This document shows positions 992 through 61,167 of a DNA stretch of 64,000 nucleotides, in pieces. The notes under the pieces are model-generated. The model was not told the DNA's origin and searched no databases. It saw only the letters and a list, made by a program, of their open reading frames with translations. This DNA comes from an uncultured Gammaproteobacteria bacterium (GTDB taxonomy: Bacteria > Patescibacteriota > Microgenomatia > Woykebacterales > RBG-16-39-9b), in the NCBI GenBank assembly GCA_964367355.1, contig CAYIWY010000001.1, positions 35,307 to 99,306 of the forward strand, given 5' to 3'. Within the stretch, counting starts at the first letter, position 1. Every line of letters starts with the position of its first letter. Made by a program: the position numbers and the translations under genes.

Positions 992-1132
992 AATTTACGT
1001 AAGGTTAGAAAAGAACAGAAGGAAGCGAGGGATTTTTTGGTACCTAAAACCTCAACACTATAAGACATAGTATTGAGATTCTAGAAACCACCAGAAGTGC
1101 GGTTCTCTAGCGGTTCAAGGAGGTTTGTCCCC

Positions 1133-1321
1133 GTGAAGACAGTCAATGGCGTGCGCTACCCGACCCCGAGCGCTTCGGCCCAAGCAGCATTCAGGGCTCA
1201 GGTTCGGCAATCGTCGGCGTCCACTCGGCTCCCGAATCTCGGTAGGTTCGGTCGGGTCGAGATCGTGCGCAGCGCAGAGGACATCCGGTCCCTTCGCGAC
1301 GACGGTCACCGGCACCAGTAG
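1133..1321 (+). CDS. possible small GC-rich protein (62 aa), uncertain
   Basis: Strong SD AAGGAGG lies 8 nt upstream of GTG 1133. GC3 is much higher than GC1/2, consistent with real coding in GC-rich DNA. However, random ORFs of this length are common in 65% GC sequence. Confidence 0.25.
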   Translation: MKTVNGVRYPTPSASAQAAFRAQVRQSSASTRLPNLGRFGRVEIVRSAEDIRSLRDDGHRHQ

Positions 1322-1780
1322 TTCTCACAGACACGCAGCCATGAGGGGGAGTTTGACTAGGCGAAAGCTGAAAATCAAACTCCCCCACCAGAAATAGTGG
1401 AGGTGACTTGGTACAAATTTAGCCATAACCCGAGATGGCGCAAACATAAGGGACGGCTCGGTATCAGTGCAAAATAAGCACGAAACCGTCCCCTAAATTC
1501 TAATCACTACGAACTTGGCTGGAGAGAGGTTCAAAGGGAGGTGAATATTATTTTACCCTCTTACTTTCAGCCAAATTCGTGAGGATTAGGTTCATTTCAA
1601 GAAAGGATTTCATTTTGGCCTAGTCGGCGCCCTTTGACAATTTAAAGCAATCAGGAAACCGAGCAGTCCAGCTCGTCACCCACTTTAGGTGGTAGTGAAA
1701 CACATTTTTGTGTGTAGCCAGGCAGAGAAGGACACCTTGAACTCTGCTTGAAGACAGTTTAGTAGTACGGAGGAATATCG
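1322..1780 (+). other. GC-rich, highly structured non-coding leader or candidate ncRNA upstream of the zinc-ribbon gene
   Basis: There is a perfect 12-bp inverted repeat GGGGGAGTTTGA..TCAAACTCCCCC at 1343-1384. A 7-bp stem GGGACGG..CCGTCCC sits around 1449-1496 with a nested GTGC..GCAC hairpin. An imperfect long stem GGCTGGAGAGAGG..CCTCTTACTTTCAGCC follows. No credible ORF is present. The stretch ends at the GGAGGA SD for the 1781 gene. Confidence 0.35.
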
Positions 1781-2617
1781 ATGTCACGCAAGCCCAGTAA
1801 GTCCCCGGCAAATGGAACTCCGGAAGCTGCGGATCTGTCCGCCGCCGATCCGAAGGACGGAAATGCTGACACCAGCGTCGCCGTCGCCACCCAGGACCCG
1901 CAGGCTGCGGAGGACGTCAACGCTCGCGAGTGCGAGTTCTGCGCCATGGTCATGCCAGCGGATTCCAAGGACCCGGCCTGCCCAATGTGCTTCCGGGACA
2001 ATCGGTTGTACATCATGCTCCGGTTCCTGGCGGCGAAGGGGCAGACGTACTGCAACGCCGTCCACGATGGCAAGCGCTGCGAATACGTACTGAACATGAG
2101 GTCGGACGGCAAGGACGTCTTCTGCCCCATGGACAAGGCGGATCGGGCGATCTTTGCGGCCGAGCGAAAGCTCCGCGAAGAGGCACCGACAACGGAAGCG
2201 CAGGCCAAGCTCGCTGAGGCGAAGGGCTTCTTCAACGGTGGGGACGACTGGAAAGCGCTCAAGGCGGCCAATCAGGTCTTCGATCTGCAGGCCAAACCCT
2301 TCGTCGAGGAGGGGCTTTCCAACCTGGTCGAGGCCGAACTCGGCCCGCTGGCACGTGCTGCTTACGATGAGGCTGTCAGCTTCGTCGAGCACGGCCAGTA
2401 CGTCCGCGCCAGCGAGTGCGTCGTGAGCATGAAGAACATCATGCCGCGCGAGCGCATGCTCATCGCCCATGGCGAGCGCCTGTCGAAGACCGATCAGCAG
2501 CGGCGGCAGCGGACCCACAGTCCTGACGTCGAGGACAACCTCGGCAGGATCAAGGGTTTCCAGCAGCGAGTCGCTTCTCACGCTCACGCCGGCAACGACG
2601 AGGACGGCGAAAACTAG
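1781..2617 (+). CDS. hypothetical Ala/Glu-rich protein with an N-terminal multi-Cys zinc-ribbon-like motif (CEFC..CPMC..C..C); GC-rich, likely foreign
   Basis: SD GGAGGA lies 7 nt upstream of the ATG. Cys pairs CxxC and CxxC are 12 aa apart, with three further Cys. The long antisense ORF 1784-2587 is a GC-artifact. Confidence 0.6.
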   Translation: MSRKPSKSPANGTPEAADLSAADPKDGNADTSVAVATQDPQAAEDVNARECEFCAMVMPADSKDPACPMCFRDNRLYIMLRFLAAKGQTYCNAVHDGKRCEYVLNMRSDGKDVFCPMDKADRAIFAAERKLREEAPTTEAQAKLAEAKGFFNGGDDWKALKAANQVFDLQAKPFVEEGLSNLVEAELGPLARAAYDEAVSFVEHGQYVRASECVVSMKNIMPRERMLIAHGERLSKTDQQRRQRTHSPDVEDNLGRIKGFQQRVASHAHAGNDEDGEN

Positions 2618-2752
2618 CGCACCGCAATAGCGACGCGCTCAACAACCATCCAGATTCGGATTGAAGCTGGGTGTGAAATGAAAGGTAACCTCACATGAAG
2701 TGACGTTACTTCGAACAATCTCAGCCTCGATTTATCGAGCAAATAGCTGAGA

Positions 2753-2812
2753 GGGGAGGGTTTCGAACTTGTTCATCATGAACAGGCGCGAACCCTCCCT
2801 TTCTCTTTTTTA
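2753..2812 (+). terminator. Rho-independent terminator with a nested hairpin and a T-run
   Basis: GGGGAGGGTTTCG..CGAACCCTCCC is an 11-bp stem with one bulge. It encloses an inner TGTTCATcATGAACA palindrome and is followed by TTTCTCTTTTTT. Confidence 0.7.
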
Positions 2813-2925
2813 ATCACCTTTCTTTCAGACGAAGAAAGGTTTTTTTGTTTCCAATAATAGCAAGAAACTTGACTTCGAGGCCAAATATGATATTATAGGG
2901 CAGTAGTTACCCACAAATTGGAAAA

Positions 2926-3351
2926 ATGGGTAAAGGAGTTGGGATATTGGAAGTACAGTGCGCAGCTGACATTTTGGAAACTAGAGTCAGACTTAATGGC
3001 AGTATAATCTGCGAGGCAAAAAACTCATATCTGGAAACGAAACCATTAAGAACCTGGGCACGGATGGCCTCCGACCAACATTTCCCAGAATTGGGAAATG
3101 CACTATCTGAATACTATGGATCGATATTCAGATATGTGAAAGGCGCACGTAACAAGCTTTTCACTGGGTCGCTAACTCGCAAGGAAGCGCTTTTCGGCGA
3201 GTATGGGCCTTATGGAGAAAATCATGAAGCTTTGGTTACTTTCAACCGAATGATAGATAGTTTGGTGGTGGTAACCTACCAAGATCTCTCTGCGGAAGAT
3301 TTTGACTACGTGAAAAAGATTTTACAACAAATTGGATTGAGAGAAATTTAA
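2926..3351 (+). CDS. hypothetical protein
   Basis: 141-aa ORF with host-like GC. No recognised motifs. Confidence 0.45.
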   Translation: MGKGVGILEVQCAADILETRVRLNGSIICEAKNSYLETKPLRTWARMASDQHFPELGNALSEYYGSIFRYVKGARNKLFTGSLTRKEALFGEYGPYGENHEALVTFNRMIDSLVVVTYQDLSAEDFDYVKKILQQIGLREI

Positions 3352-23899: not shown

Positions 23900-23979
23900 G
23901 TGGTGTATAATGTATAGTGTATAACGCGCTGATAATTTATTTCAGAGAAACAGGCGCGCGATATTTGTCGAGGACGAAA

Positions 23980-24258
23980 ATGAAAAGAAAACAAATATAC
24001 CTTACTGAAACCTTAGATCGAGAAATTGGAGAATTGGCGAAAAAGGAAAATAAACCACAAGCTGTGGTTATTCGTCAGCTTCTAGAAAACAGTATTCAGA
24101 AAAAATTGAGTAGTGGGGAATTCCTATTGAAGTTGGCTAAATATGCAGTTCCTGGACCAGGTGATCTGTCTACCAACCTCGATCGTTACCTCTATGGAGA
24201 TTTGTCTCCTAATTATGGCCATCTCTACCGAAAAAAGAAAAATTCTAATAGACGCTGA
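23980..24258 (+). CDS. ribbon-helix-helix (CopG/VapB-like) antitoxin
   Basis: MKRKQIYLTETLDREIGELAKKENKPQAVVIRQLLE is an RHH pattern. Overlaps the downstream PIN gene. Confidence 0.55.
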   Translation: MKRKQIYLTETLDREIGELAKKENKPQAVVIRQLLENSIQKKLSSGEFLLKLAKYAVPGPGDLSTNLDRYLYGDLSPNYGHLYRKKKNSNRR

Positions 24259-24676
24259 TGCTTTTATTGGGTTGATCTACGCAAAGGATGCAAACCATCA
24301 ATTTGCAAGTAAAATAGTTGAGTTACTAACAGATGTCCAGCTGATTACTTCAAGTCATGCTTACGGTGAGGCAATTACGATACTCAGCCAAAAAGCTGGT
24401 CGAAATGTAGCATTTAAGTTTATCTACGATATAGGTAGAAGTTCTACCCAAATTATAGATGTTGGTTTTGCCCTGCGATTGGCCGCGGAGAAAATTTTCA
24501 AACGACAAACTTCTAAGAACGTCTCTTTCACCGATTGTGTCAATATGGCGATTCTTGAAAAGTTTGGTTTAAGAGAAATTTTTAGTTTTGATTCAGACTA
24601 CAAGAAGAATGGGTTTGTACGAGTTGGTGTTGATAAAAAGCTTGAAGGGGAGGTGGTTAACGAGGAAAAGAAGTAA
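24215..24676 (+). CDS. vapC: PIN-domain toxin (VapC-like)
   Basis: ILIDADAFIGL (first acidic residue) and SFTDCVNMAIL..IFSFDSD (C-terminal acidic residues). The ORF-track start at 24143 is probably too early. Confidence 0.65.
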   Translation: MAISTEKRKILIDADAFIGLIYAKDANHQFASKIVELLTDVQLITSSHAYGEAITILSQKAGRNVAFKFIYDIGRSSTQIIDVGFALRLAAEKIFKRQTSKNVSFTDCVNMAILEKFGLREIFSFDSDYKKNGFVRVGVDKKLEGEVVNEEKK

Positions 24677-24912
24677 TGAACATTGATGTAAACAAACTAA
24701 GTGCATTTTACGTTGAGCTTTGTGAAAAGCAAAAACCAGAAAAACCTTACTATTGTGAAACACAAGAGCTTAAAGGTTTCGGAACGGTAAGCTCGGGTAC
24801 TATTGTCCATCAACAGACAACGGTTATTGTTGGCACTGTTGGAACTTCGGCCGTCACTATAAATCCTAACTTGTATTATTCCATAGGTACTATAGTAAAG
24901 AATGAGTTATGA
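24676..24912 (+). CDS. hypothetical small protein
   Basis: 78-aa ORF in an operon-like arrangement. Confidence 0.3.
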   Translation: MNIDVNKLSAFYVELCEKQKPEKPYYCETQELKGFGTVSSGTIVHQQTTVIVGTVGTSAVTINPNLYYSIGTIVKNEL

Positions 24913-25514
24913 AATATGAATTCATTGCTGTAGATATCCAGAATGAGTTTGCCACTGAGGGTGGTCTTCACTATACTCCAAAACCCTCCGTCCGCTTTCT
25001 AAATGAAAATATATTCCCGGTTTTTGAATCCAGAGGGATAAAAATAAACAACATTGTCTCTGATTACCGTCAACCCAGGCCAGGAGACTGGGGTAAAGGT
25101 TGTATTCCAGGAACTTGGGGTTATGAAACTTTGGTCCCAAAAGACTTAATAAAATCTACATGGATAAAGTGCATGAATTCCCCGATTTGGGTTCGGGAAA
25201 ATATTGGCGATCCGAACAAAGAACCAGGACTGCCTTATCAAGATCCAAAAAAATTCCAAGAATGGTTAGATAAAAATATTGGAAAACCGGATGAAGTTAT
25301 CCCAGTTTTAATGGGGTTGACTATTGATTGCTGTGTTCTCTCGACCTTGCAAGAACTGAACTGGCATGGTTATTACCCATTGATTTTAAAAGAAGCAGTT
25401 GACCATGCCACGGGAAAAATTGAAGATAGGGACAAGGTGCTTGAAACCCCAGCTTCTAATTGGGGAAAAGTTATAAGTTGGGAAGAGTTATCCAAGCAAC
25501 TAAACCGACAATGA
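24909..25514 (+). CDS. isochorismatase-family hydrolase
   Basis: N-terminal FIAVDIQNEF and a catalytic Cys context (LTIDCCV). Confidence 0.7.
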   Translation: MKYEFIAVDIQNEFATEGGLHYTPKPSVRFLNENIFPVFESRGIKINNIVSDYRQPRPGDWGKGCIPGTWGYETLVPKDLIKSTWIKCMNSPIWVRENIGDPNKEPGLPYQDPKKFQEWLDKNIGKPDEVIPVLMGLTIDCCVLSTLQELNWHGYYPLILKEAVDHATGKIEDRDKVLETPASNWGKVISWEELSKQLNRQ

Positions 25515-26068
25515 AAATCTGTGTTTTTGGAGACAGTATTACTTGGGGAGCTTTTGATCTAGAATCCGGTGGTTGGGTTGAGCGACTCAAAGTACATTTT
25601 TTTAATAACAATACCGAAACTTATATTTATAATTGTGGAGTTTCTGGGGACAAGGTAAACGACCTATTAAAAAGATTTGATACCGAAGCAGTTTCACGAA
25701 AACCGGACAAAATTATATTTTCCATTGGAATTAATGACAGTGCAAACAAAGATAACCCAGGTGGAACACCAATAGATGAATTCAAAAGTTCCTATAAAAC
25801 TCTTTTAGATAAAGCAGAAAAACTCACTAAAGATATTTTAGTAGTTGGGCTTAACAATATCGATGAGGCAAGTAACAAATTTGGTTATAGAAACGAAGAA
25901 ATTAAGAAATACAACGATGTAATCAATGAAATTTCCCAAGAAAGAAACCTCAAATTTGCGGACTGTTTTGGAATTTTGACAAAGGAAGATTTTTATACTG
26001 ATGGTGACCATCCAAATTCTAGTGGGCATCAGAAGATTTTTGAAAAAGTTTTACATATCCTCAAATAA
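25511..26068 (+). CDS. SGNH/GDSL hydrolase
   Basis: ICVFGDSITWG block I and DGDHP block V. The start overlaps the upstream stop (ATGA). Confidence 0.7.
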   Translation: MKICVFGDSITWGAFDLESGGWVERLKVHFFNNNTETYIYNCGVSGDKVNDLLKRFDTEAVSRKPDKIIFSIGINDSANKDNPGGTPIDEFKSSYKTLLDKAEKLTKDILVVGLNNIDEASNKFGYRNEEIKKYNDVINEISQERNLKFADCFGILTKEDFYTDGDHPNSSGHQKIFEKVLHILK

Positions 26069-26124
26069 ATTGACCCTAGTGGTATAATAAATTCCCATAT
26101 TTTGCGAAGGAAGGAGGTGAATAA

Positions 26125-26502
26125 ATGGTAGAGGTGCAAGTGGCAACTCCAAGTGGAGAACCGGTAGTGGAAGCCTGGTCGCACACTTCGAACGGAGACC
26201 GATTCCGGCCTTGGGTTTCGGAAGATCACTGGGTTTTTAAAGCAGGGGAAGATTGGGAGATAGTTCGTGACGAAGCTTCAGCAGTTGTATTTCGAATTCA
26301 TCCTGGGCATCATCTGATGTTCCCCGGCAGTGAGTTTGTGGCGACTACTGAGGACGGTCGAAAGATCCGCACTCGAGGTACGTTGACCACAGAAGGTGAC
26401 GAACCTGTGGATCTGGTTATGAAGGGCCACCGTATCAAGGCCTACCGTAGTCCGGACCACCGAAACTTTCCACCCCGGCCAATCGACATCGACAACTGGT
26501 AG
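26125..26502 (+). CDS. hypothetical protein, GC-rich (island B)
   Basis: Strong SD AGGAGGTG. Preceded by an extended -10 TGgTATAAT (26079-26087) and followed by a terminator. About 58% GC against a host of about 38%. Confidence 0.6.
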   Translation: MVEVQVATPSGEPVVEAWSHTSNGDRFRPWVSEDHWVFKAGEDWEIVRDEASAVVFRIHPGHHLMFPGSEFVATTEDGRKIRTRGTLTTEGDEPVDLVMKGHRIKAYRSPDHRNFPPRPIDIDNW

Positions 26503-26524
26503 CAGATAGGAAAAACCCACACAA

Positions 26525-26560
26525 GCCCCGAGGAGAAAAACTTCGGGGCCTTTTCTTTTC
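26525..26560 (+). terminator. Rho-independent terminator
   Basis: GCCCCGAGG..CTTCGGGGC followed by CTTTTCTTTT. A convergent minus-strand terminator (GGTGGATGGCAACATTCACC plus a T-run) sits at 26562-26596. Confidence 0.7.
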
Positions 26561-26600
26561 CAAAAAATAAAAGGTGAATGTTGCCATCCACCTTTTTGGG

Positions 26601-26876
26601 CTAACTTTCCACACCAACCCTTGCTAGTTCCTGATCAATTACCTCAACCACTTGCTGAATGGTATCTGGGTTTGCTTCGTCAGGAAATTCGAAATCCGGA
26701 TTATTTTTCTTTACCTCTTCTTCGAGACGGTAGAAGAAATAAGCTGTTCCGACAAACGCATCAACCAACCCAAGACTGGACACGGTGGCATTTGGCCCGA
26801 AAATTCGCTCGTTACGTTTACCTGGTTCGATTTCAAGAGCAACCCTCTTGACCAACTCGTAAGTTGTTTCAGCCAT
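26601..26876 (-). CDS. acyl-carrier-protein-like single-domain protein lacking the conserved phosphopantetheine Ser
   Basis: SLGLVDAF..RLEEEV..NPDFEFPDEANPDTIQQVVEVIDQ aligns with ACP helix II-IV (LGADSLD..EEEF..IPDE..I.TV..ID). The Ser position is Asp. Confidence 0.5.
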   Translation of the reverse strand: MAETTYELVKRVALEIEPGKRNERIFGPNATVSSLGLVDAFVGTAYFFYRLEEEVKKNNPDFEFPDEANPDTIQQVVEVIDQELARVGVES

Positions 26877-26885
26877 CCTCTTCTC

Positions 26886-27488
26886 CTATTTTCCTGTTGG
26901 CACTTTATCCAACTTTTTGTCCACCCGATCAACAACTTGTTGGATAGTGTCTATTTCCATCCAGTCATCTACATCAAGCTCGAAGTCTGGATGGTCAGTC
27001 TGGAAATCTTCTACTAATGCTTCAAAGAAGTCTATCACGCCAAGACCAAGCTTTTTGAGTGTAGATTCTGGTTTTACAGAATTCGGATCTAAGTCTTTCG
27101 TACCCCTAGTTCTCAGAAAGTTCATACGAACACGATTAAAAGTGCTGGACCAAACCCTTCTCTCCCGAGAGAACATAAGAGAAGTGTCTAGGGCTTTGAC
27201 TAAGTCCCCAACCGTTTTAAGTGCGTTATTGGGGTCGAAATCGATCGAGTTGCTGAAAAGATATTCTTCCTTCTTAAAAAGCTGCTGCAACTCTCCGAAA
27301 AAAAGAAAACCAGCCCAGAGTGGTTGTCTGGTGCTACCAAAGATATCAAGTAGCGGTGTCTCTGGATTGATACCCGTTTCGGGAATCGTGATGGCCTTTT
27401 GTTCAACGATAACTCGGAAAACCTTCTGGAAAGTCGTCTCTACTTTCTCTGTCACTTGTCTTTCTCCTTGCTGAACTCTCGAGGACAA
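26886..27488 (-). CDS. protein with two tandem ACP-like domains (paralog of the 26601-26876 gene)
   Basis: The C-terminal domain KKLGLGVIDFFEALVEDF..HPDFELDVDDWMEIDTIQQVVDRVD matches the 91-aa protein. The N-terminal half (LLDIFGS..ELQQLFKKEEYLF..IDFDPNNALKTVGDLVKAL) follows the same pattern. Confidence 0.5.
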   Translation of the reverse strand: MSSRVQQGERQVTEKVETTFQKVFRVIVEQKAITIPETGINPETPLLDIFGSTRQPLWAGFLFFGELQQLFKKEEYLFSNSIDFDPNNALKTVGDLVKALDTSLMFSRERRVWSSTFNRVRMNFLRTRGTKDLDPNSVKPESTLKKLGLGVIDFFEALVEDFQTDHPDFELDVDDWMEIDTIQQVVDRVDKKLDKVPTGK

Positions 27489-27510
27489 TATAACACAACT
27501 GAATTAATTA

Positions 27511-27550
27511 GAAAAATTAAAGGCCTTGTACAAATTTTGTACAAGGCCTT
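27511..27550. terminator. perfect palindrome AAGGCCTTGTACAAAttTTTGTACAAGGCCTT with flanking T/A runs; bidirectional terminator
   Basis: Seen directly, between the 27557-27955 and 26886-27488 genes. Confidence 0.65.
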
Positions 27551-27556
27551 TTGGGT

Positions 27557-27955
27557 TTATCCCGGGACCAATTCTTTTTCTCCGGTCAGGACTAGCTCGA
27601 CGATCTCGTGAGACTTAAGCGCATCCGAGCGTTGATTACACGCTGACTGAGCCCTTGCCTTCGCAACCTGGTCAATTTCTTCGAGGGACCAAGAAGAATC
27701 CATCTCTGTTTCAAACGAAAACTTTCTGCCGGAAACGGTTTCGACGTTAACAACGACTTTGTAATGGTGTTGAGTAACAGCCGGTTGATCCATAACTCTC
27801 CTTTCGGCAACCTCCGGTTCTAGCCGTCTTGTCCGTACCGCTGGTTCGCGGTTGTCGCAAGCAGGGCTACCCCAACCGTTGTCCTCATCTCCTTCACGAC
27901 GTGCAGGTTCTCGATTATCACAAGCGCCCCATCCCATTAGACCTCTCCTTTCCAA
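27557..27955 (-). CDS. hypothetical protein with a tandem Cys-containing repeat (GWGACDNREPA and GWGSPACDNREPA)
   Basis: The direct repeat sits in the N-terminal third. The C-terminal part appears globular. GC-rich. Confidence 0.5.
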   Translation of the reverse strand: MERRGLMGWGACDNREPARREGDEDNGWGSPACDNREPAVRTRRLEPEVAERRVMDQPAVTQHHYKVVVNVETVSGRKFSFETEMDSSWSLEEIDQVAKARAQSACNQRSDALKSHEIVELVLTGEKELVPG

Positions 27956-28068
27956 TTTCTGCTTGGATTGTAAAGCAAAAAGCTATTTTTGACAAGCAAG
28001 ATTATAATTGTAATTGGTTATAGGTCTTCCTATAATTTATCCAAGGTTGGTTTTGAAAGGAGAGAAAA

Positions 28069-28338
28069 GTGGTAGATGAAAAAGCACCTCTAGACCTGGG
28101 TCGTTTGACCAAAATGGCGGAAGATCTGGCAGAAGAGCTTAATGTTGCGGCCGCAAAGTCTACCGATGCAGAGACTAAACTCAGAGCTGGAAGAGCGGAA
28201 ATTTTTTCAAGAGTTTTGATCCTGACTTTGCAAAAAGACGAAAGAGAGGCAGCTCGTTACGCCGCTGGTTTCGTTGGAGACACCTTGAACAATGTTCTTG
28301 GCGTCTTTGGATTCGAAATAAAGCGAAAGGACAAGTAG
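28069..28338 (+). CDS. hypothetical protein
   Basis: GTG start with SD AAAGGAGAG. 89 aa. Divergent from the 27955 gene. Confidence 0.45.
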   Translation: MVDEKAPLDLGRLTKMAEDLAEELNVAAAKSTDAETKLRAGRAEIFSRVLILTLQKDEREAARYAAGFVGDTLNNVLGVFGFEIKRKDK

Positions 28339-28346
28339 TCATCGTT

Positions 28347-28374
28347 AAACCCCGGAAAATTTTTCGGGGTTTTC
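28347..28374 (+). terminator. Rho-independent terminator
   Basis: AAACCCCGGAAAATTTTTCGGGGTTTT. Confidence 0.7.
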
Positions 28375-28396
28375 ACTTTTCTGTTACTATATTGAA

Positions 28397-28978
28397 GTGA
28401 TAAAAGCAATTATTTTTGATTTCTTTGGGGTGATTTGCCCGGATCTTTATTGGGGATGGTTGAGAAAACAAATTCCGGATCTTGAAAACCAGAGAGGCTA
28501 TTTTCAGGAACTTTCCGACCAGTTTGATTTGGGAAAACTCTCCACAACAGCGCTTATCAGAATTCTTTCCGAAAAAACTTCTGTTAAAGAAGAAAAGGTT
28601 ATTCCTTTTATCGAACAATCGGTTCAGATCGACACTGAAGTAGTCGAAGTAATTAAGTCGTTAAAAAGAAACTACAAAATCGGTTTATTGTCCAATTCTA
28701 ATACTGAATTTATTGAAGGTATTTTGAAAGATCATAATTTGAACGACCTTTTTGACTCGATTGTTATTTCCCAGAAGGTTGGTTTTATAAAACCCCAAAG
28801 AGAAATTTTCGAAATAGCACTTAAAGAACTAAATGTCGAAGCAAGTGAGGTTTTGTTCGTCGATGATCGCGAGAGTAACACTTCGGCCGGCGAAAAACTT
28901 GGTATCAGAGGAATTCTTTATCGAGGTGCCAATACTTTAAAAGAAGAATTAAAACATCAAGAAATCTTAGTTAATTAA
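28397..28978 (+). CDS. HAD-superfamily hydrolase
   Basis: IIFDFFGV (motif I region), LLSNSN (motif II) and FVDDRESN (motif IV). Confidence 0.7.
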   Translation: MIKAIIFDFFGVICPDLYWGWLRKQIPDLENQRGYFQELSDQFDLGKLSTTALIRILSEKTSVKEEKVIPFIEQSVQIDTEVVEVIKSLKRNYKIGLLSNSNTEFIEGILKDHNLNDLFDSIVISQKVGFIKPQREIFEIALKELNVEASEVLFVDDRESNTSAGEKLGIRGILYRGANTLKEELKHQEILVN

Positions 28979-29182
28979 GGCCATCAGTTGAAATATAAAA
29001 TGAAAACCCTTGGAAAACAAAAAGTTCAAAAGTTGTCTACGAAAATTAAATTTTAATTCCAATCTTTTGAGATGAAGTTTATTTTACAGTAAATACTCAG
29101 TTTTGATAGCTACATACAGAAAAAGCTAGACTTTTTTTGGATTTTGTTGTCTAATAGGATTCTATAGGAGGGTCTCTTTACT

Positions 29183-29434
29183 ATGTTTAAACGCTTAAGT
29201 GTCACCACTGCTTTATATTTTGCCTTAGTTTTCTTTGTTGCATCAAGCAGATCATCCCATGCTTACCTGGATCCCGGAAGTGGAAGTTTTGCTTTGCAAT
29301 TTCTACTTGCTGGAGGTTTAGGAGCATTATTCTTTGTTCGCTCTTACTTTTCAAAAGTAAAGAATTTCTTTTTTAGTATTTTTGCCAAGAAAAAAACGGA
29401 CACTGCCCCTACCAAGGGGAAGAATGGCAAGTAG
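29183..29434 (+). CDS. small secreted or membrane protein
   Basis: Signal/TM-like N-terminus and a second hydrophobic segment. Confidence 0.3.
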   Translation: MFKRLSVTTALYFALVFFVASSRSSHAYLDPGSGSFALQFLLAGGLGALFFVRSYFSKVKNFFFSIFAKKKTDTAPTKGKNGK

Positions 29435-30800
29435 ACACCCGGCCTCTTTTCGTGATCCAAGTGGTTTTATATTTCACTCCAAGATTGGACTACTTCGCCA
29501 AATAAACGCTTCTTACCAGAAAAACTACGAAAAACTTATTAGTAGTGGTTTATTCCAAAAATTAGTTACAGAAGGTTTGTTGGTGGATCACAAAGAAGTT
29601 GATCTCAAGCAGTTCTCCCAAAGTAGTGAAGCTTACAAAATTATCCAGCCACAAAAAATTGATTTTATTTCGTATCTCTATGAGTGGAGTTTTGGGCAGT
29701 TGCAAGATGCAGCTCTTCTGACCCTAAAAATCCAAAAAATCGCTTTGGAATTTGGAATGAGTTTAAAAGATGCTAGTGCTTACAACATTCAATTTTTTCA
29801 AGGCAAGCCGATTCTTATCGACACCCTGTCTTTTGAAATTCACAAAACTGATCAACCTTGGGTGGCTTATCGTCAGTTTTGTCAACATTTTTTGGCCCCA
29901 CTGGTTTTAATGTCTTATCTTGACCCGAGACTTTTAAGATTAAATCAGCTTTTTATTGACGGAATACCGTTAGATTTGGCAGCCAAACTTTTGCCTTTTA
30001 AATCAAAACTCAATTTCAATTTATTTCTACACTTACATTTACACGCCTCAAGTCAGAAAAAACATTCCGTCAAAAACAGAAAAATCATAAGAAAAGCTAG
30101 TTTTAGCATGAATTCTTTTATGGGTTTGATCACAAGTTTGGAAAGTAGCATCAAAGGCTTGAAATGGCAACCAAAAGGAACAGAATGGGCGGATTATTAT
30201 GAAGCTAACAATAATTATGAAAAAGCATTGAGTCAAAAAGAAAAGCTGGTTGATGAGTTTTTGAAAGTAGCCAAACCGACTTCAGTCTGGGATTTGGGAG
30301 CTAACACTGGACTTTTTAGCAGATTATCAGCTGACAAAAAAATTTCAACAATATCATTTGATATCGATTTAGAGGCAGTTGAGCTAAATTACAAAGCCGT
30401 TAAGGAACAAGAAGAAAAATTTTTACTGCCGCTTTTTTTGGATTTGACCAACCCTCCTCCAGCCATTGGTTGGAAAAATCAAGAAAGAGAGTCGCTAGTT
30501 GAGCGTGGGCCAGTCGATACAGTCCTTGCTTTAGCTTTGGTTCACCATCTAGTGATCTCAAACAACTTGCCTCTTGAAGAACTGCGTGATTTTTTTGCCA
30601 GTATTTGTTCAAAATTAATTATCGAATTTGTTCCCAAGAGTGATTCACAAGTTAAAAAACTTCTTTCAACCAGAGAGGATATTTTTCAGAATTACGAGCA
30701 AAAAAGTTTTGAAAATATTTTCCGCGAAAAATTCAAAATAGCTAAATCTAGATTAATCCCGAAAACAAAAAGAACACTTTATTTGATGATAAAAATTTAA
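29424..30800 (+). CDS. FkbM-family-like methyltransferase
   Basis: VWDLGANTGLFS is a DxGANxGxxS motif. SD AAGGGGA precedes the ATG at 29424. Confidence 0.5.
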   Translation: MASRHPASFRDPSGFIFHSKIGLLRQINASYQKNYEKLISSGLFQKLVTEGLLVDHKEVDLKQFSQSSEAYKIIQPQKIDFISYLYEWSFGQLQDAALLTLKIQKIALEFGMSLKDASAYNIQFFQGKPILIDTLSFEIHKTDQPWVAYRQFCQHFLAPLVLMSYLDPRLLRLNQLFIDGIPLDLAAKLLPFKSKLNFNLFLHLHLHASSQKKHSVKNRKIIRKASFSMNSFMGLITSLESSIKGLKWQPKGTEWADYYEANNNYEKALSQKEKLVDEFLKVAKPTSVWDLGANTGLFSRLSADKKISTISFDIDLEAVELNYKAVKEQEEKFLLPLFLDLTNPPPAIGWKNQERESLVERGPVDTVLALALVHHLVISNNLPLEELRDFFASICSKLIIEFVPKSDSQVKKLLSTREDIFQNYEQKSFENIFREKFKIAKSRLIPKTKRTLYLMIKI

Positions 30801-30887
30801 CTTTTTAAAAGTTAGTCAGGGAATTTCTCAAATGAACCTCCGAGGGTTAAAACCATTGGTTTCATCTGAGAAGCTTCGTTTTTGATG

Positions 30888-30929
30888 ACAAAAATAAAAA
30901 AGGGTGATAAGGAGAAATTCCCCATCACC
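30888..30929 (-). terminator. Rho-independent terminator for acpP
   Basis: GGGTGATAAGGAGAAATTCCCCATCACCC hairpin with a minus-strand T-run. Confidence 0.6.
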
Positions 30930-30938
30930 CCTACGAGA

Positions 30939-31202
30939 TTACCCATCCTTTATCCCGATTCCTTTTAGATAATCGATCGCGTCCTGAACAGTGAAGATCC
31001 TTTCAGCAGCCTCAATTGCGATTTCAAAGGTCTTTCCGTCTTGGAGAGGGAACTCTTCTTCCACTGTCATTATGAGTTCAACCAGGTCAAGACTATCGGC
31101 GTTGAGGTCGTCAACGAATGATGCGCTGGGAACAACTTGGTCTTCTTCAACTCCAAGTTGGTCGACAACGATCTTGCGAACCCTTTCGAAAACTGTTGCC
31201 AT
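30939..31202 (-). CDS. acpP: acyl carrier protein
   Basis: [19 protein letters not shown] with the canonical DSL Ser. 87 aa. Confidence 0.85.
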
Positions 31203-31378
31203 AAATCTCTCCTAACTAAGTGGCTCTTTTCTTGGTTTGAATTTTAACACACCTAGCAAAATTTGATAACCTGTAGTAAAGGGCTGGCAATAAAAGATGT
31301 TTTCTGCTAGAATTGTCTACTAACTATGGCTAAAAAAGACTTAGATTTTCTTAAAGCGCAAGATTTTGGAGGAACGTA

Positions 31379-31516
31379 GTGACGAAAAAAGATTATCATG
31401 AGGTTTTAGGCGTTGCAAAAAGCGCCTCGGACGAAGAAATAGACTGCTCGTATTCTGTGCCTTTGATGATTACATCAAAGCCGAATACTGTGCATTCTGC
31501 AAACACTTTGTGTTAG
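31379..31516 (+). pseudogene. truncated DnaJ J-domain remnant (45 aa) immediately upstream of dnaJ
   Basis: SD GGAGGA then GTG. MTKKDYHEVLGVAKSASDEEI matches the J-domain N-terminal consensus ([26 protein letters not shown]). The frame then diverges and stops before the HPD motif. Confidence 0.45.
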
Positions 31517-32917: not shown

Positions 32918-32992
32918 TGGAGCGGAAGACAGGATTCGAACCTGTGACTTGCTGTTTACGAAACAGCTGCTCTACCACTGAGCTACTTCCGC
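32918..32992 (-). tRNA. tRNA-Thr (anticodon CGU), CCA encoded
   Basis: Reverse complement GCGGAAGTAGCTCAGTGGTAGAGCAGCTGTTTCGTAAACAGCAAGTCACAGGTTCGAATCCTGTCTTCCGCTCCA folds as a cloverleaf with anticodon loop TTCGTAA. Confidence 0.85.
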
Positions 32993-32994
32993 GT

Positions 32995-33070
32995 TGGCGA
33001 CTACGGAGGGATTCGAACCCACGATCCTACGCTGTCAACGTAGTGCTTTAAACCACTGAGCTACGTAGCC
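32995..33070 (-). tRNA. tRNA-Val (anticodon GAC), CCA encoded
   Basis: Reverse complement GGCTACGTAGCTCAGTGG..CTACGTTGACAGCGTAG..GGTTCGAATCCC..CGTAGTCGCCA. The anticodon stem CTACG/CGTAG is perfect, with loop TTGACAG. Confidence 0.85.
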
Positions 33071-33100
33071 TTTACTCCGAAAATTCGGAGGAATCTCTTT

Positions 33101-33176
33101 TGGTGGGGCAGACAGGAGTCGAACCTATAACCTCTTGCACGCAGTGCAATTGCTCTCCCAATTGAGCTACCACCCC
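33101..33176 (-). tRNA. tRNA, probably Ala (anticodon UGC); loop parse ambiguous
   Basis: Reverse complement GGGGTGGTAGCTCAATTGGGAGAGCAATTGCACTGCGTGCAAGAGGTTATAGGTTCGACTCCTGTCTGCCCCACCA. Cloverleaf with T-loop TTCGACT. The anticodon loop ACTGCGT gives UGC but carries C33 and a G3-C70 pair, so the identity is uncertain. Confidence 0.65.
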
Positions 33177-48958: not shown

Positions 48959-49005
48959 GTTGCGCGCCAGCCTATAATCCATTTCGATAAAGAAAGGAAC
49001 TGCCC

Positions 49006-49788
49006 ATGGTTACTGCCACAGCCGCAAAGAACGGCGCATCTGCCGAACCTGTGACATCGCGCCGCGACACTCGCGCCAGCAAGGTTTCGGCGGTCAAGAC
49101 AGAGCAATCGTCCAAGTCCAACACGGGTTGGATGCACGTCAGGATTCACTGTGTCGGGCGCACCCCCCTGCTGATGGATCCCATGACTGATGGGACCATC
49201 GAGGAGCTGGAAACTGGGGTTCGCAAGCCGATCAACAAGCAACTGACGCGTTACCAGGTCTGCGAACCCAAAGTCATGCACAATGCTGCTGGCTTGATCG
49301 CGGTCCCCATCGACAACTTCTTCGCCTGCACTGTCGAGGCCGGCCGGAGAATCCCGTTTCAGAAGATGAGCAAGATGAGTACGGCTACCAGCACGACTTT
49401 GCCGGAGTACTTCCGCTTCATCTCGGAGGATCTGGTACTACTCGACAATAAGGGTAAGCCACTGCCGGACTGGGACGGGAAGTCGAAGAACGGCAGCTGG
49501 AGCGTCGATGTGCGCCGTGGTTGTCTCAAGGATGGCACGGCTGTGCCGATCCGGCGGCCGAAGTTCGACCACTGGGAATTCGATGTCGAGTTCGAGTATG
49601 ACATGGGAGTCATCTCGGACCAGAAGCTTCTCGATCTGATCAAGATCGCCGGCACGACCATGGGGCTGTGCAGCTTCCGGCCGAACAAGAAGGGTCGCTT
49701 TGGCACCTTTGCGATGACGCGCTGGGAAGAGATCGCTCGCCGTGAACAGGATACCGAGGTTGAGATAGTCAGGTTGAAGGCCGCGTAA
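49006..49788 (+). CDS. hypothetical protein (island D gene 1), GC-rich; possible glycine-rich loop near the C-terminus
   Basis: SD AAAGGAA. 260 aa. Low-complexity N-terminus. C-terminal GTTMGLCSFRPNKKGRFGTF is loosely reminiscent of a RAMP/Cas6 G-rich loop; this is speculative. Confidence 0.55.
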   Translation: MVTATAAKNGASAEPVTSRRDTRASKVSAVKTEQSSKSNTGWMHVRIHCVGRTPLLMDPMTDGTIEELETGVRKPINKQLTRYQVCEPKVMHNAAGLIAVPIDNFFACTVEAGRRIPFQKMSKMSTATSTTLPEYFRFISEDLVLLDNKGKPLPDWDGKSKNGSWSVDVRRGCLKDGTAVPIRRPKFDHWEFDVEFEYDMGVISDQKLLDLIKIAGTTMGLCSFRPNKKGRFGTFAMTRWEEIARREQDTEVEIVRLKAA

Positions 49789-49847
49789 CAACAAAGGGTG
49801 ACGTACAGTACGTTTCGTTAGGTTGGCACAACTGCACTGTCGTCATT

Positions 49848-49899
49848 TGCACTACAGGGTGGGGAACTAGGAGTCAACTTCTTTTTCCCCACCAAAACT
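49848..49899 (+). terminator. hairpin GGGTGGGGAA..TTCCCCACC plus T-run after gene 1; its 5' arm resembles the array-unit head
   Basis: CAGGGTGGGG is shared with unit R10. Followed by AAAACTCTTTTTTGG. Confidence 0.5.
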
Positions 49900-50042
49900 C
49901 TTTTTTGGTGGTTTGGTATCGGAATAAATTTCGTTACTAGAGCATCAAAACAAATACTTGGAGAAGATCAATCCAGAGTTGGGCCAAGCATTGTGGACAT
50001 ACCTGCCCTTTCGTCTACTGCTGCCCACTCCGCTGCGTCATG

Positions 50043-51304
50043 GGGCTGGATCCGATTATCGCAAGACGATCGGATCTGCCGACACTAACTACCTCGGCGT
50101 TGATGAGTGCGTTTCACTGACGTGAACTGCTTTGCACTTTAATGCGCTCGAGTTAAGTAGAGGGCTGGGGATCCGGAGAGAAATCAAAGGATCTCTGCCA
50201 ACCTTTTGTTTTCAAGTAGCCTGGGGCGGACTTCATAACAGTGGAGTTTCCTGGGGTCACCTGCAGGGCTGGGTTCCGAGAGGAAACAATCGGAACCTGC
50301 CACCTTGTTGACGGACTAAGCTGACGTTCAGTGTCGAACCGTTCGGTTCAGCACGCTCACGTGCGTCAGGTTTTAGTGGGGTGCAGGGCTGGGGGTTTCC
50401 TTGGGAAACTAGGGAAACCTCTGCCAACCAATGTTCGGTGCGCAGTTACCTCTCGTATTGATCGCCTTCCTGCTGTTGGCTACTCTGTCGTTTGGTGACC
50501 TGCTGTAATCTGAAGGGCTGGGTCCGTTTACAGAAATGTATCGGACTTGCCAAATTTGTGGTCTAGGGTGCGGTTTGGTTAACTCCACTAGCGTGCGGAA
50601 AACTGGCCTACACCTAACTGACGTCAGGGGCTGAGGACCCGGAGAGAAATCAAAGGGTCTTTGCCAACAAACTCAATTCGTTCCCCTGCTGTGAAGATGG
50701 CTTAACTTCAGTTAAGTTCTCCTTACTTACGTGGGGTATCGTGGAGTATGGGGCTGGGGATTTGCTCTGGAGAAATCTATTCAAGTCCCTGCCAACAACT
50801 TAAGTTGAACTTAGCTGCAGCTGACTTCTGTTCGCTGGGCTATTGTTACGTGCAGGGCTGGGTCCGTTTACAGAAATGTATCGGACCTGCCAAACCAATT
50901 TTGATGAATTGATTCTGAAAACATAAATTTCAAAACCAGCTCATCAGGGTTTTGAGAGAGTTATCAAGTGCGCTAGACCACTGTTCCCTAAAGCACCCAA
51001 GGGTTCAGCCCACTTTCGTGGTCTTCGCAATGGTACTGGGCTGGGGACCCGGAGAGAAATCAAAGGGTCTCTGCCAAAACGCTTTCAACTTAGGTACTGT
51101 ACCCCGTTCTTCGGTAAACAGTCCTGTCGCATTGTTTAGGGCTGGGGAGTTGGTTAACTTTGGTTTTCTAACTCCCTGCCAACCGAATTAGATTTTCGAG
51201 GGGTAGTGTTGTGTATGGCAGCGTCATGCTCCGTCTGCTTCAGTACACCAGGTTGCCCCATAGTTCAGGACTGCCCCCGATGTTTCGAAAGAATTATCGG
51301 GGGT
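50043..51304 (+). repeat. array I of structured repeat units with the pattern CAGGGCTGGG, variable hairpin, CTGCCAAC (11 units)
   Basis: Units: 50043-50083, 50162-50202, 50266-50304, 50386-50428, 50515-50554, 50628-50668, 50751-50796, 50855-50894, 51038-51080, 51138-51182, plus a degenerate unit at 51261-51304. Stems of 5-7 bp covary (GATCC/GGATC against GACCC/GGGTC; GTCCG/CGGAC; GGATCTG/CAGATCC; GGTTTCC/GGAAACC). Loops usually contain AGAAAT. Inter-unit segments are unique and 60-184 bp long. There is no ORF. Confidence 0.85.
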
Positions 51305-51365
51305 GTCATTTTTCAATATTTACCTAAAAAATTCTGTCCCATTTTGTAACAAGGCACTTTAACAA

Positions 51366-53213
51366 GTGACAAATAGTAAAGGAGAGGGGACAACAGTGCC
51401 TTCATCGCAACATCGTGGTAGGCCTTCTTTCGAGGAGCTTACCTCCGCCTGGCCAAGGCGGCGACTTGGACCCATGTGGTCCGAACAAGAAGAAGCCTTT
51501 GAGGTCATTGCCAAACATGGCAGTTGTACCTTGGAGGTACCGACTGGTATGGGCAAAACCGCTATCGGTTACACGACGCTCAAGGCGTTGGGCAACCGTG
51601 GTGAAGGCCCACTTTTCTACATCGTGCCGACCAAAACTTTGGTTGGACAGGTAGCTGAGATGTTTCCAGACGTCACTCCGGCCTATGGTCGGAATGAGTT
51701 TGATTGTCTCTACTACGACGAGCCGTACAAAGCGGACGAAGTCCCTTGCCTGCTATTGCAGGACTGTGTCCATCGGGTCGATCAAGAGACTGGCCGGACT
51801 GCTGGTCGAGGAGCAGAACGTTGCCCCTACTACCACGCCAAGTACCAAGCCAAACGCGATCCGAGTCGGATCGTAGTCTGCTCGATGTCGTTTTACCTTT
51901 TCACCCAGCTTTTCTCCAAGGAGTTTGAGAATCCAGCTGGTTTGGTGATCGACGAAGTTCAGCAGATGCCAGATGTGGTCCGTAATGCTCTGTCTTTTGA
52001 CATCACGGACTATCAGTTGCAACGGGCGATCAACCTACTGTCAACCACAGCTGCGGATGAAGCTGCTGGTCTCGAGATCTTTCTCGATACTATGTTGCGG
52101 ATCATTCGACTCAAGCCTTCGAAGGTGCCGGTAATGCTCGAAGATGTCGAGTTGCAGGAACTGCTGTTGGTCTTGCGAGATATTGACCGCGATGGTCTGC
52201 GTCGCAAGATCGCCGAGGGTATCCGCTCGGGCGACATTGATGTCGTCAAAGAGCGAGAAGTCCTGACCAAAGTTGAGCGACTGGTCTATGACCTGTACCG
52301 TTACGTGCGAGCGTTTGAATTTTCGCTCAGCAACGAAACACAACGGCCACTCAACTACACCTACGCAGTTTGGGACAAAGAACCAGCTGAGGGCAAAAAG
52401 GTCCACAACAAGCTGACCGTCAAGTCCTACTACGTCGCGCCGGTGATCAAGAAACTGCTGTCAGCCAATCTGACAGTGAGTTTGGGAGCGACTATCGGCG
52501 ACCCGAACGTGTTTGGTTACGAGTCAGGGATCGATCCGAGGCGAACGCCGATGTTCACTTTTGACTCGAGTTTTCCGGTCGGCAACACCCGGATCTACGT
52601 TCCGTCGGACTCCTTTAGCTTGGCGGAAAAAGAGGTCAAAAATCGTGGTAAAGCCACAATGGTCCGTCGGATGGTTCGCTCGGCCAAAACCTTCAACCAA
52701 AAAGGTGAGCGCGTGTTGTGCTTGGTCGTCTCTGACACCGAGCGGCAGCGCTTTATTCGGATGGCCACTGAAGACGATGTCAACTTCATCACTTACGGTG
52801 ATGGCGTGACCGCGCGCGAAGCTGCGGACCGCTTCCGTGCCGGAGAGGGTAAAGTCCTGCTTGGGACAGACGCCCAGTACGGCCAGGGTGTTGACCTGCC
52901 AGACGGTATCTGTCGGGTGATCTTCTACCTGCGACCCGGTTATCCGCGACCAGATGATCCTCAGACCCAGTTTGAGGAAAAGCGTTTTCGCTCACAGAAG
53001 TGGGCAATCTGGCAGTGGCGACTGATCATGAAGGCGATGCAGGTGCGCGGTCGTAACATCCGTGGTCCGGAAGACAGGGGAGTGACGATTTTCTTCGACA
53101 GCCGTTTCCGGCGTTTCCTTTTCGGAGGGATGCCCAAGTGGCTCCAGCCGTCATATCGTGGAGATCTGACACTGCAAGAGTGCATTGAGGACGCGCTCAA
53201 GGTGTTGAAGTAG
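51366..53213 (+). CDS. Rad3/XPD/DinG-family SF2 helicase with an Fe-S domain (island D gene 2)
   Basis: Walker A TGMGKT. Four Cys lie between motifs I and II (CLYY, PCLLL, DCVHR, ERCPYY). Motif II is VIDEVQQM (a DEAH-like DEVQ). The C-terminal LLGTDAQYGQGVDLPDG and QVRGRNIRGPEDRGVTIFFDSR match DinG motifs V/VI. An alternative start GTG 51396 has SD AAGGAGAGGGG. Confidence 0.8.
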   Translation: MTNSKGEGTTVPSSQHRGRPSFEELTSAWPRRRLGPMWSEQEEAFEVIAKHGSCTLEVPTGMGKTAIGYTTLKALGNRGEGPLFYIVPTKTLVGQVAEMFPDVTPAYGRNEFDCLYYDEPYKADEVPCLLLQDCVHRVDQETGRTAGRGAERCPYYHAKYQAKRDPSRIVVCSMSFYLFTQLFSKEFENPAGLVIDEVQQMPDVVRNALSFDITDYQLQRAINLLSTTAADEAAGLEIFLDTMLRIIRLKPSKVPVMLEDVELQELLLVLRDIDRDGLRRKIAEGIRSGDIDVVKEREVLTKVERLVYDLYRYVRAFEFSLSNETQRPLNYTYAVWDKEPAEGKKVHNKLTVKSYYVAPVIKKLLSANLTVSLGATIGDPNVFGYESGIDPRRTPMFTFDSSFPVGNTRIYVPSDSFSLAEKEVKNRGKATMVRRMVRSAKTFNQKGERVLCLVVSDTERQRFIRMATEDDVNFITYGDGVTAREAADRFRAGEGKVLLGTDAQYGQGVDLPDGICRVIFYLRPGYPRPDDPQTQFEEKRFRSQKWAIWQWRLIMKAMQVRGRNIRGPEDRGVTIFFDSRFRRFLFGGMPKWLQPSYRGDLTLQECIEDALKVLK

Positions 53214-53287
53214 AGAGTCAACCTGTGGCCTAGTCAAGTTAACCGAGCTGTTCTGTGGTGACTTGATGTCGGCTATTCAATTGCACA

Positions 53288-53882
53288 GGGTGGGGATCTG
53301 CTCTGGAGAAATCTATCCAGATCCCTGCCATTTTCTTTTTTCAACGAGTGCAGTTAGGCAGACAATGTCATTGTCCTGTTTACCTAACTGGTGTTCGCTG
53401 CAGGGCTGCCTCGATAAAACCGAAAGGATTTATCGGGGCGCCATTCTTTTGATAGTTTAATTTTGGAAATATTTTCAAAACTAGCCTATCAAAGAAAAAC
53501 GATATGGTATTCTTTTGTCGACGCGGCGGTCTTCAGTTCGCTAGCCCATGCTGCCGTTCGGTAGAGTCGGGAACGCTAGAGAGTACTGAACCGCAGTATG
53601 GGGCTGGGAACCTGCTCTGAGTAATCATCAGGTTCCTGCCAACGTTCACTTTCGTGCGGTTCAACAGCGTAGGGACTCGCCAACTGTGGTAAAGTTCTCT
53701 ATTGTAGTGTTAACCGCGCTGGTCTAAAGGGCTGGGGATCTGCTCTGGAGAAATCTATCCAGATCCCTGCCAATTTCACAAACTGACTCAAGCAGGGCCA
53801 TGTCCACAGGAGTTAGGTGGCCTGCGCTTTTGTCTAGTTTAGGGCTGGGTCCGATTTCAGAAATGTTTTCGGACCTGCCAAC
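53288..53882 (+). repeat. array II of the same structured repeat units downstream of the helicase (5 units)
   Basis: Units: 53288-53331 (ends CTGCCAT), a degenerate unit at 53403-53444 (similar to 51261-51304), 53601-53643, 53729-53774, 53842-53882. Units 50751-50796, 53288-53331 and 53729-53774 form one family. Units 50515-50554, 50855-50894 and 53842-53882 form another. Confidence 0.85.
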
Positions 53883-54067
53883 TCAATTTCGGCGGGATTC
53901 AAGTTTTTATTAACTTGGTCCCGCTTTTTCTTTTACCAAATTTTGTTTCGAGATTGAAAATGGTATTATAATAAGAGACGATCTGCCAAGATACCGCGTT
54001 AAATGTAATTTAGATAAATTAAGAACTATTTTATGCGCGCGATATTTCGTCATCTAAAACTGCCAAA

Positions 54068-57777: not shown

Positions 57778-61167
<3,390 letters not shown>

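Follow-up and report, generated by a model that had tools for sequence, protein, structure and literature searches.

Acyl carrier protein-like domains lacking the phosphopantetheine-attachment serine in a two-gene operon of an uncultured groundwater bacterium

We describe two adjacent paralogous genes, here designated B and C, whose products comprise three domains related to acyl carrier proteins (ACPs), all of them lacking the canonical serine to which the phosphopantetheine arm is attached. They lie in a 64,000-nt stretch of DNA (hereafter, the window; contig CAYIWY010000001.1) from the 0.1-μm fraction of Hainich groundwater, where Patescibacteria dominate the community (PMC8672522). The contig measures 187 kb, and its groundwater source, low GC and gene content suggest a Patescibacteria/CPR origin. 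Both genes are maintained by purifying selection within a very small family, and their products may act by docking to other proteins.

Organization of the B-C operon

The window contains a minus-strand operon in which B is followed by C (Table 1), and we recovered both reading frames exactly where a first-pass annotation, made from the sequence alone, had placed them. Translation of B most likely begins at the GTG at 27455, yielding a protein of 189 aa, rather than at the TTG at 27488, because an AAGGAG precedes the GTG by 7 nt, the surrounding sequence shows 100% conservation in the related locus L008, and gene callers selected this start on other contigs. Approximately 60 nt around this GTG show almost no change across two other contigs. 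Translation of C would start from an ATG with a GGAG located 9 nt upstream, which overlaps the stop codon of B.

Alignment showed that the leader preceding B is near-identical in the window, L008 and L012. It includes an extended −10-like element that we read as a putative promoter, one that a consensus promoter scan did not list. Immediately upstream, gene A ends in a predicted intrinsic terminator; the corresponding stem in L008 has another sequence and compensatory changes that preserve its pairing, indicating that the hairpin is a real structure. As this hairpin closes gene A, B and C would form a separate transcription unit, and a second terminator-like hairpin follows right after C. A search of Rfam over 25.5-29 kb returned nothing credible, and a match to the trpB motif in this interval (E=0.3) was taken as chance.

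Table 1. Coordinates of the B-C operon and of neighbouring features in the window
Feature	Coordinates	Strand	Description
Gene D	26125..26502	+	125 aa; convergent with C; common to L009
Terminator-like hairpin	26569..26596	-	Right after gene C; terminator scan
B-C operon	26601-27455	-	Two genes, B then C, spaced 9 nt
Gene C	26601..26876	-	91 aa; one Ser-less ACP-like domain; pI 4.35
Gene B, open reading frame	26886-27488	-	200 aa when counted from the TTG at 27488
B C-terminal domain	26886..27161	-	Residues 99-189 plus stop; C-type ACP-like
B N-terminal domain	27162..27455	-	Residues 1-98 of 189 aa; divergent ACP-like
Putative B-C promoter and 5' leader	27456..27518	-	Extended -10-like TGtTATATT; AAGGAG, 7 nt, GTG
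Predicted intrinsic-terminator hairpin ending gene A	27519..27551	-	Terminator scan: 15 pairs and T-run
Gene A	27557..27937	-	126 aa; three invariant Cys (alignment)
Gene E	28069..28338	+	89 aa; helical; co-inherited with A-B in L008 and L012
Canonical acpP	30939..31202	-	87 aa; DSL serine present; 3.5 kb from B-C

The three domains are related to one another and to acyl carrier proteins

The product of C and the C-terminal domain of B share 40% identity (BLASTP E=3e-10), including the near-identical C-terminal ends that the first-pass annotation had correctly quoted. Similarity of C to the N-terminal domain of B is weak in pairwise comparison (E=0.006), and a profile of three B N-terminal domains matched a profile of seven C-type domains over 84 columns (hhalign, 95.4%, E=1.7e-8). 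Together, these pairwise and profile matches indicate that B and C contain three related domains. B and C of the window share the motif DTIQQVV unchanged, even though five of its seven codons differ synonymously between the two genes, which argues for selection on the peptide and not for gene conversion; a recent conversion event between the two genes was thus ruled out.

In a comparison of the C-type profile with all PDB sequences, ACPs took all of the top 32 places (best E=3.9e-6), and their alignments covered the full length from helix I to helix IV; we found no other helical family. The best PDB match was mitochondrial SDAP1 (30 bits), and E. coli AcpP scored about 1e-2. The same profile matched a small AcpP alignment with hhalign (92.4%, E=5e-7). 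B matched the NCBIfam ACP model NF002150 with 25.4 bits (E=1.2e-5; cut-off, 66 bits), and sub-threshold NCBIfam ACP matches were also obtained for the family members P0002, P0003, P0005 and P0006, with scores of 13-24 bits for members other than B. Neither B nor C matched any Pfam family, including PP-binding PF00550, even at E<=10.

The AlphaFold model of C has a pLDDT of 83, and there is good support for a four-helix ACP fold in both C and the C-terminal domain of B. The N-terminal domain of B aligned with AcpP at only 26.7% in hhalign, its profile found no match in the PDB, and its model has a pLDDT of about 41-59; an ACP fold is probable here solely by virtue of homology to the C-type domains. 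In the low-confidence model of B, a single long helix connects the two domains and includes an invariant RERR motif, part of the basic F-x-RERR linker that directly precedes the C-terminal domain.

Several features are kept throughout the family: T-x-F-E-R-V in helix I, an acidic stretch in the latter half of helix II (LEE[ED]F) followed by a D-x-P-D-F-E-F loop, and T-I/V-Q-Q at the start of helix IV. Both proteins are acidic, B having a pI of 4.89 (Table 1 for C). Conversely, the first half of helix II, which is acidic in AcpP, has lost its acidic residues and is aromatic and hydrophobic. The N-terminal domains of B additionally contain the invariant motifs ETTFQKVFR, DIFGST-x-QP-x-WAGF-x-FF and LKTVGDLV.

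The phosphopantetheine-attachment serine is absent

AcpS attaches 4'-phosphopantetheine at a serine located at the N-terminus of ACP helix II, and in HMMER, hhalign and MAFFT alignments this residue (AcpP Ser36) corresponds to F41 of C. Across the seven C-type domains, the Ser36 column contains F, I, F, L, M, M or a gap, and it lies in an indel of 0-5 residues just before an invariant Gly. The gap belongs to the C-terminal domain of B from the window, for which pairwise phmmer aligns a V instead. For the N-terminal domain of B, the aligned residue is R43 with hhalign or L46 with MAFFT; considering all three N-terminal domains, the corresponding residues are R/P/T or L/M, respectively. In consequence, HMMER, hhalign or MAFFT placed a Ser at the attachment column in none of the ten family domains, and the Asp-Ser-Leu motif occurs in no domain of B or C. 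The absence of the canonical DSL serine noted in the first-pass annotation was thus reproduced for all three domains, although the residues in this column are mostly hydrophobic instead of the D or V given there; the V agrees with the phmmer alignment of the C-terminal domain of B.

Within DIFGST-x-QP, the N-terminal domains of B do contain an invariant Ser41-Thr42 pair, which precedes the aligned site by one to five residues, and it is for this domain that the claim of no modifiable serine is therefore least secure. No AcpS-like open reading frame was found in the window with AcpS query sequences, which is a weak test.

Because the attachment serine is missing and curated thresholds are not reached, and because of the lack of a synthase context, labelling B and C as acyl carrier proteins is not warranted.

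Conservation, selection and distribution

The reading frames of B and C are intact in every good-quality contig, and their dN/dS values are well below 1 (0.13 for B and 0.36 for C), indicating that they are functional genes; values for neighbouring genes were 0.25-0.28 for A, 0.19 for E, 0.14 for the HAD gene and 0.12 for the GDSL gene. The low dN/dS, together with Shine-Dalgarno sequences on both genes, the conserved leader and the flanking terminators, shows that B and C are real, expressed-looking genes under purifying selection. C is the fastest-evolving gene of the locus, with 52% identity between the window and L009, as compared with 73-86% for its neighbours. Orthologs of B are 58-61% identical and retain long invariant motifs, their N-terminal domain being the most conserved part.

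The family comprises about seven distinct proteins among 1.84 billion cluster representatives. A word-indexed search of 5.8 billion clusters retrieved three relatives of B, and with C as query only C itself. An exhaustive HMMER profile search of the 1.84 billion representatives produced six matches (P0003, P0005-7, P0008 and P0009), with P0005-7 being single-domain proteins; P0008 and P0009, long proteins with no significant Pfam domain, were treated as spurious. The alignment of B found nothing among GTDB species representatives and, among JGI metagenomes, a single additional contig, which likewise comes from the Hainich site. Scans of IMG/VR for B and for A did not reveal any relatives. The family is thus small and confined to one small uncultured clade.

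The operon is part of a hypervariable island

The island containing B and C is located between dnaK-grpE-hrcA and acpP-dnaJ, and comparison of sister genomes with at least 90% DnaK identity shows the dnaK-dnaJ interval to be hypervariable. One sister genome (L095/96) has neither the island nor acpP, and another (L097/98) contains acpP and no island. Conserved GDSL and HAD genes flank the interval and are also found in the island-free L095/L096; in the window and in L009, the island abuts the GDSL/SGNH lipase-like gene. A PIN toxin-antitoxin pair lies 2 kb from the locus. The island shows a GC3 of 0.41-0.51, versus 0.26-0.38, although this cannot be taken as proof of foreign origin, given that acpP has the same GC3.

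Gene order is shuffled among loci: E-A-B-C-D in the window, E-A-B-x-C in L008, C-A-D in L009, A-C in L010 and E-A-B... in L012/13, with L001 containing B alone, in another setting that has neither A nor a GDSL gene. Despite this shuffling, five of the six informative loci have A immediately beside a gene of the ACP-like family. The N-terminal arm of A carries the motif GWG(SP)ACDNREPA, which in the window occurs as two copies that differ synonymously and has the consensus GSPAC[DS]NR[ED]PA in the A family; its C-terminal part is a small, conserved, alpha/beta-looking domain (VET..FSFETEM..W.L.EI). With six members in the database of 5.8 billion clusters, the A family is about as rare as the ACP-like family, and A has no matches in the PDB or Pfam.

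It is uncertain whether E and D belong to the system. There was no informative match in the PDB or NCBIfam for A, D or E; a match of E to 7rdr, a designed repeat protein ('circular tendon repeat'), was regarded as one of low complexity. As the first-pass annotation had stated, there is no synthase nearby: Pfam annotation of approximately 10 kb on each side did not identify enzymes for fatty-acid, polyketide, NRPS or lipid-A synthesis, and synthase domains were likewise absent from ten further open reading frames of the window and from related loci.

Canonical acpP and the origin of B and C

The window also encodes a canonical AcpP, with scores of 87.8 bits for TIGR00517 and E=7e-9 for PF00550. 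This protein is 74-81% identical to AcpPs from Chloroflexota/Dehalococcoidia MAGs, the group to which all of its best 80 GTDB matches belong; the AcpP encoded by sister genome L097 shares only 64% identity with it. The canonical acpP itself looks accessory and possibly laterally acquired. It contains an insertion of five to six residues after helix II (KDGxxLEI), which is shared with B and C and is absent from the AcpPs of E. coli and B. subtilis. Likewise, insertion-type AcpPs scored 21-29 bits against the family profile, versus 13-19 bits for those of E. coli and B. subtilis. The shared insertion and the higher scores of insertion-type AcpPs suggest that a duplication of the local, possibly laterally acquired acpP gave rise to B and C. 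This does not amount to proof, because the profile scores have no clear preference for the local AcpP and because the best PDB match of the family is SDAP1.

Proposed function and alternatives

We give about an even chance to the reading that B and C are cofactor-free ACP derivatives that act by protein-protein docking, a mechanism that we infer from the features described above. The first-pass annotation had already suggested that they might work as protein-protein adaptors, and this is, in our view, the most plausible reading. The domains would descend from an ACP of the AcpP type, the likely source being a loop-extended, Chloroflexota-like acpP. During divergence, the serine of helix II would have been lost from all three domains, and its segment would have turned hydrophobic and aromatic and become variable in length; as a result of the serine loss, B and C would not carry acyl thioesters in the canonical manner. 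The kept scaffold, the acidity and the motifs LEE[ED]F, DxPDFEF and TI/VQQ are part of the partner-docking face of ACPs, and with this face partly kept, binding free of a prosthetic group, as an adaptor, a decoy or a regulatory subunit, appears most likely. The classical client interface of ACPs is only half preserved, in that the acidic residues which normally make the contacts are missing from the N-terminal half of helix II. The best candidate for a partner would be the co-inherited, Cys-containing A and, in second place, a client of the resident AcpP. A is not an obligatory partner, since B occurs without it in L001, and shared descent within a tiny clade could suffice to explain the co-occurrence of A with B and C.

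Alternatively, B could be a cryptic carrier, with Ser41 or Thr42 of its N-terminal domain serving as a shifted attachment site and with C and the C-terminal domain of B as helper domains. Both residues are invariant in the three B orthologs, inside a near-invariant block of 17 residues at the junction between the loop and helix II, in the most conserved part of the protein, and hhalign places them at −2 and −1 relative to the AcpP serine. However, the position aligned with the serine is itself R/P/T or L/M, depending on the method, and the DIFGST motif is out of the Asp-Ser-Leu context that is recognised by AcpS-type enzymes in AcpS and Sfp substrates. Moreover, the model, of low confidence in this region, would start helix II at P45, leaving S41 in the preceding loop; C-type domains have no conserved Ser/Thr at that place, and no PPTase, synthase or ligase was found nearby, by a weak test in the case of the AcpS queries. 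We therefore deem a cryptic carrier unlikely. In ACP folds, acyl chains are sequestered within the protein core, and the pocket of B and C might instead hold free fatty acids or other lipids without a thioester, allowing an ultra-small, probably lipid-scavenging bacterium to handle lipids derived from its host. The unusually aromatic and hydrophobic helix II of the family and the proximity of the GDSL/SGNH lipase-like gene in the window and L009 would fit such a binder. Nevertheless, this adjacency is no evidence of function, because the GDSL and HAD flanks also exist in the island-free sister genome L095/L096, B of L001 is found without a GDSL gene, and Phe/Tyr at pocket positions of helix II would more probably fill a cavity than open one, so that we regard non-covalent lipid binding as improbable.

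A role in a conflict system, as immunity protein, antitoxin, anti-phage factor or phage-derived moron, with A, D or E as the toxin, seems to us doubtful. It would agree with the accessory, compositionally distinct (GC3) and hypervariable nature of the island, with the faster evolution of C relative to its neighbours and with the surrounding small uncharacterised proteins and nearby PIN toxin-antitoxin pair, but there is no toxin domain nearby and tests with PADLOC, PHROGs, BFVD and IMG/VR were negative. In particular, PADLOC detected nothing for B or C, and neither a match to immunity or defence families nor a recognisable adjacent toxin was found, so the toxin-immunity role mentioned in the first-pass annotation gained no support. 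Its other suggestion, a phage origin, fared no better: similarity to phage ACPs (PHROG 5934; carrier domain-containing proteins of BFVD), which are also small stand-alone ACP folds outside synthase clusters, was marginal (PHROG E=0.017 over 28 residues; BFVD E>=0.1, with nothing at E<=1e-3 in the BFVD fold search), and IMG/VR holds no relatives. The loss of the catalytic serine, the tiny family and the fast divergence would also be expected of decaying acpP duplicates or spurious open reading frames, an explanation that is strongly disfavoured and hardly credible in the face of intact frames, dN/dS well below 1, long invariant motifs in orthologs that are only 58-61% identical, conserved Shine-Dalgarno sequences, leader and terminators, and a confident model of C. 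It is also very improbable, in our estimation, that B and C form with A a carrier system without prosthetic group, to which a Cys of the A arm supplies the thiol in trans. The invariant Cys on the flexible, repeat-bearing arm of A would then be a 'swinging arm' replacing the CoA-derived cofactor, which would suit an organism with minimal cofactor biosynthesis. In a less radical variant, B and C would serve as ACP decoys and regulate the client proteins of the laterally acquired AcpP.

Comparison with known carrier proteins

The phosphopantetheine arm is what defines a carrier protein, and stand-alone bacterial ACP folds kept under purifying selection without the attachment serine have hardly been described; a full-text literature search found no stand-alone Ser-less ACP family of this type. 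If docking without a cofactor is true, a central metabolic shuttle would have been turned into a pure protein-interaction domain, and this in a genome-reduced groundwater bacterium, although the practical reach is limited to about seven members in one small uncultured clade.

B and C are homologous to AcpP (PF00550; TIGR00517 / PRK00982) and share its fold, but differ from it in the missing attachment serine, DSL motif and synthase context, in an aromatic instead of acidic first half of helix II, and in scoring below every curated threshold. Organellar structural ACPs (complex I SDAP/NDUFAB1, the Ycf2-FtsHi ACP, mt-SAF32 and ATPTT11) resemble B and C only in the idea of a binding module. These proteins generally keep the serine and bind LYR-type partners through the acyl-phosphopantetheine arm, whereas B and C are bacterial and Ser-less, with no LYR-type partner evident. 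Finally, B is similar to the tandem ACPs of PKS, PUFA and prodiginine synthases (for instance, the mupirocin didomain 2l22 and the PigH doublet 5y08) only in its domain arrangement. Those doublets have a phosphopantetheinylated serine per domain and an associated synthase, B having neither, and, unlike in the synthase doublets, the two domains of B are highly diverged from each other.

Variable gene content and a possible mosaic history between dnaK and dnaJ

We compared synonymous divergence between the window and L009, a related locus on another contig. Values were 0.24 for A, 0.59 and 0.83 for the flanking genes GDSL and HAD, 1.1 for C, which encodes a Ser-less ACP-like protein, and 2.1 for the small gene D, while acpP was saturated. 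Because synonymous divergence thus varies approximately tenfold among neighbouring genes of a single genome pair, these sequence comparisons suggest that the island has a mosaic history with internal recombination.

Comparison of the window with the sister genomes lacking the island (L095/L096 and L097/L098) and with the related loci L001 and L009 showed that the dnaK-dnaJ interval (window ~23900-31500) is a hypervariable hotspot of gene content across closely related genomes. The small unknown genes found there differ between genomes, and the occupants include a PIN toxin-antitoxin pair, GDSL, HAD, NUDIX and cupin genes and a sulfatase-like gene, with acpP either present or absent. In the window, the overlapping pair that includes the PIN-domain gene looks like a VapBC-type toxin-antitoxin module.

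Features in the window and at related loci
Feature	Location	Strand	Remarks
Overlapping pair: 92-113-aa ORF, then PIN-domain protein	window 23917-24676	+	directly after dnaK
Gene A	window 27557-27937	-	small protein; three invariant cysteines
Canonical acpP	window 30939-31202	-	compared with L015-L094 and L097
Three clustered tRNA genes	window 32921-33176	-	downstream of dnaJ
DEAD_2/Helicase_C_2 helicase	window 51366-53213		in high-GC patch 49000-54000
495-aa ORF	window 55030-56517	+	weak Baseplate_J-like match, E=1e-4
Unknown 139-160-aa protein, with island	L008 1615-2034; L009 5086-5517; L010 1022-1504	-	

Canonical acpP

All of the best 80 GTDB matches to the window AcpP were from Chloroflexota/Dehalococcoidia (74-81% identity). 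Conversely, it shares only 64% identity with the AcpP of the sister genome L097, although their DnaK proteins are at least 90% identical, and acpP is absent from another sister genome (L095/L096). The GC3 of the gene is 0.47, compared with 0.26-0.38 for flanking genes. Canonical acpP therefore looks like an accessory gene, and was possibly acquired laterally.

Small proteins of the island

Gene A is rare, with six relatives among 5.8 billion clusters, and family and structure searches returned no match. Its N-terminal peptide motif, GWG(SP)ACDNREPA, occurs in two copies both in the window and in L009; the duplicated copies show synonymous codon differences, indicating that the motif is translated and under selection. 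The 139-160-aa protein is absent from the window. Two of its three copies start with M(A/P)TGYTG and all three end in a REFF..L..F-type sequence; tblastn detected similarity only between the L009 and L010 copies.

Other regions of the window

Two more patches, at 1000-3000 and 49000-54000, have a high GC content (0.49-0.55, compared with ~0.38). Neither contains rRNA, and their ORFs at 1781-2617 and 49006-49788 had no Pfam match. Large ORFs (57778-61167, 1129 aa) neighbour the ORF with the Baseplate_J-like match, which may belong to the remnant of a prophage or of a contractile-injection system.
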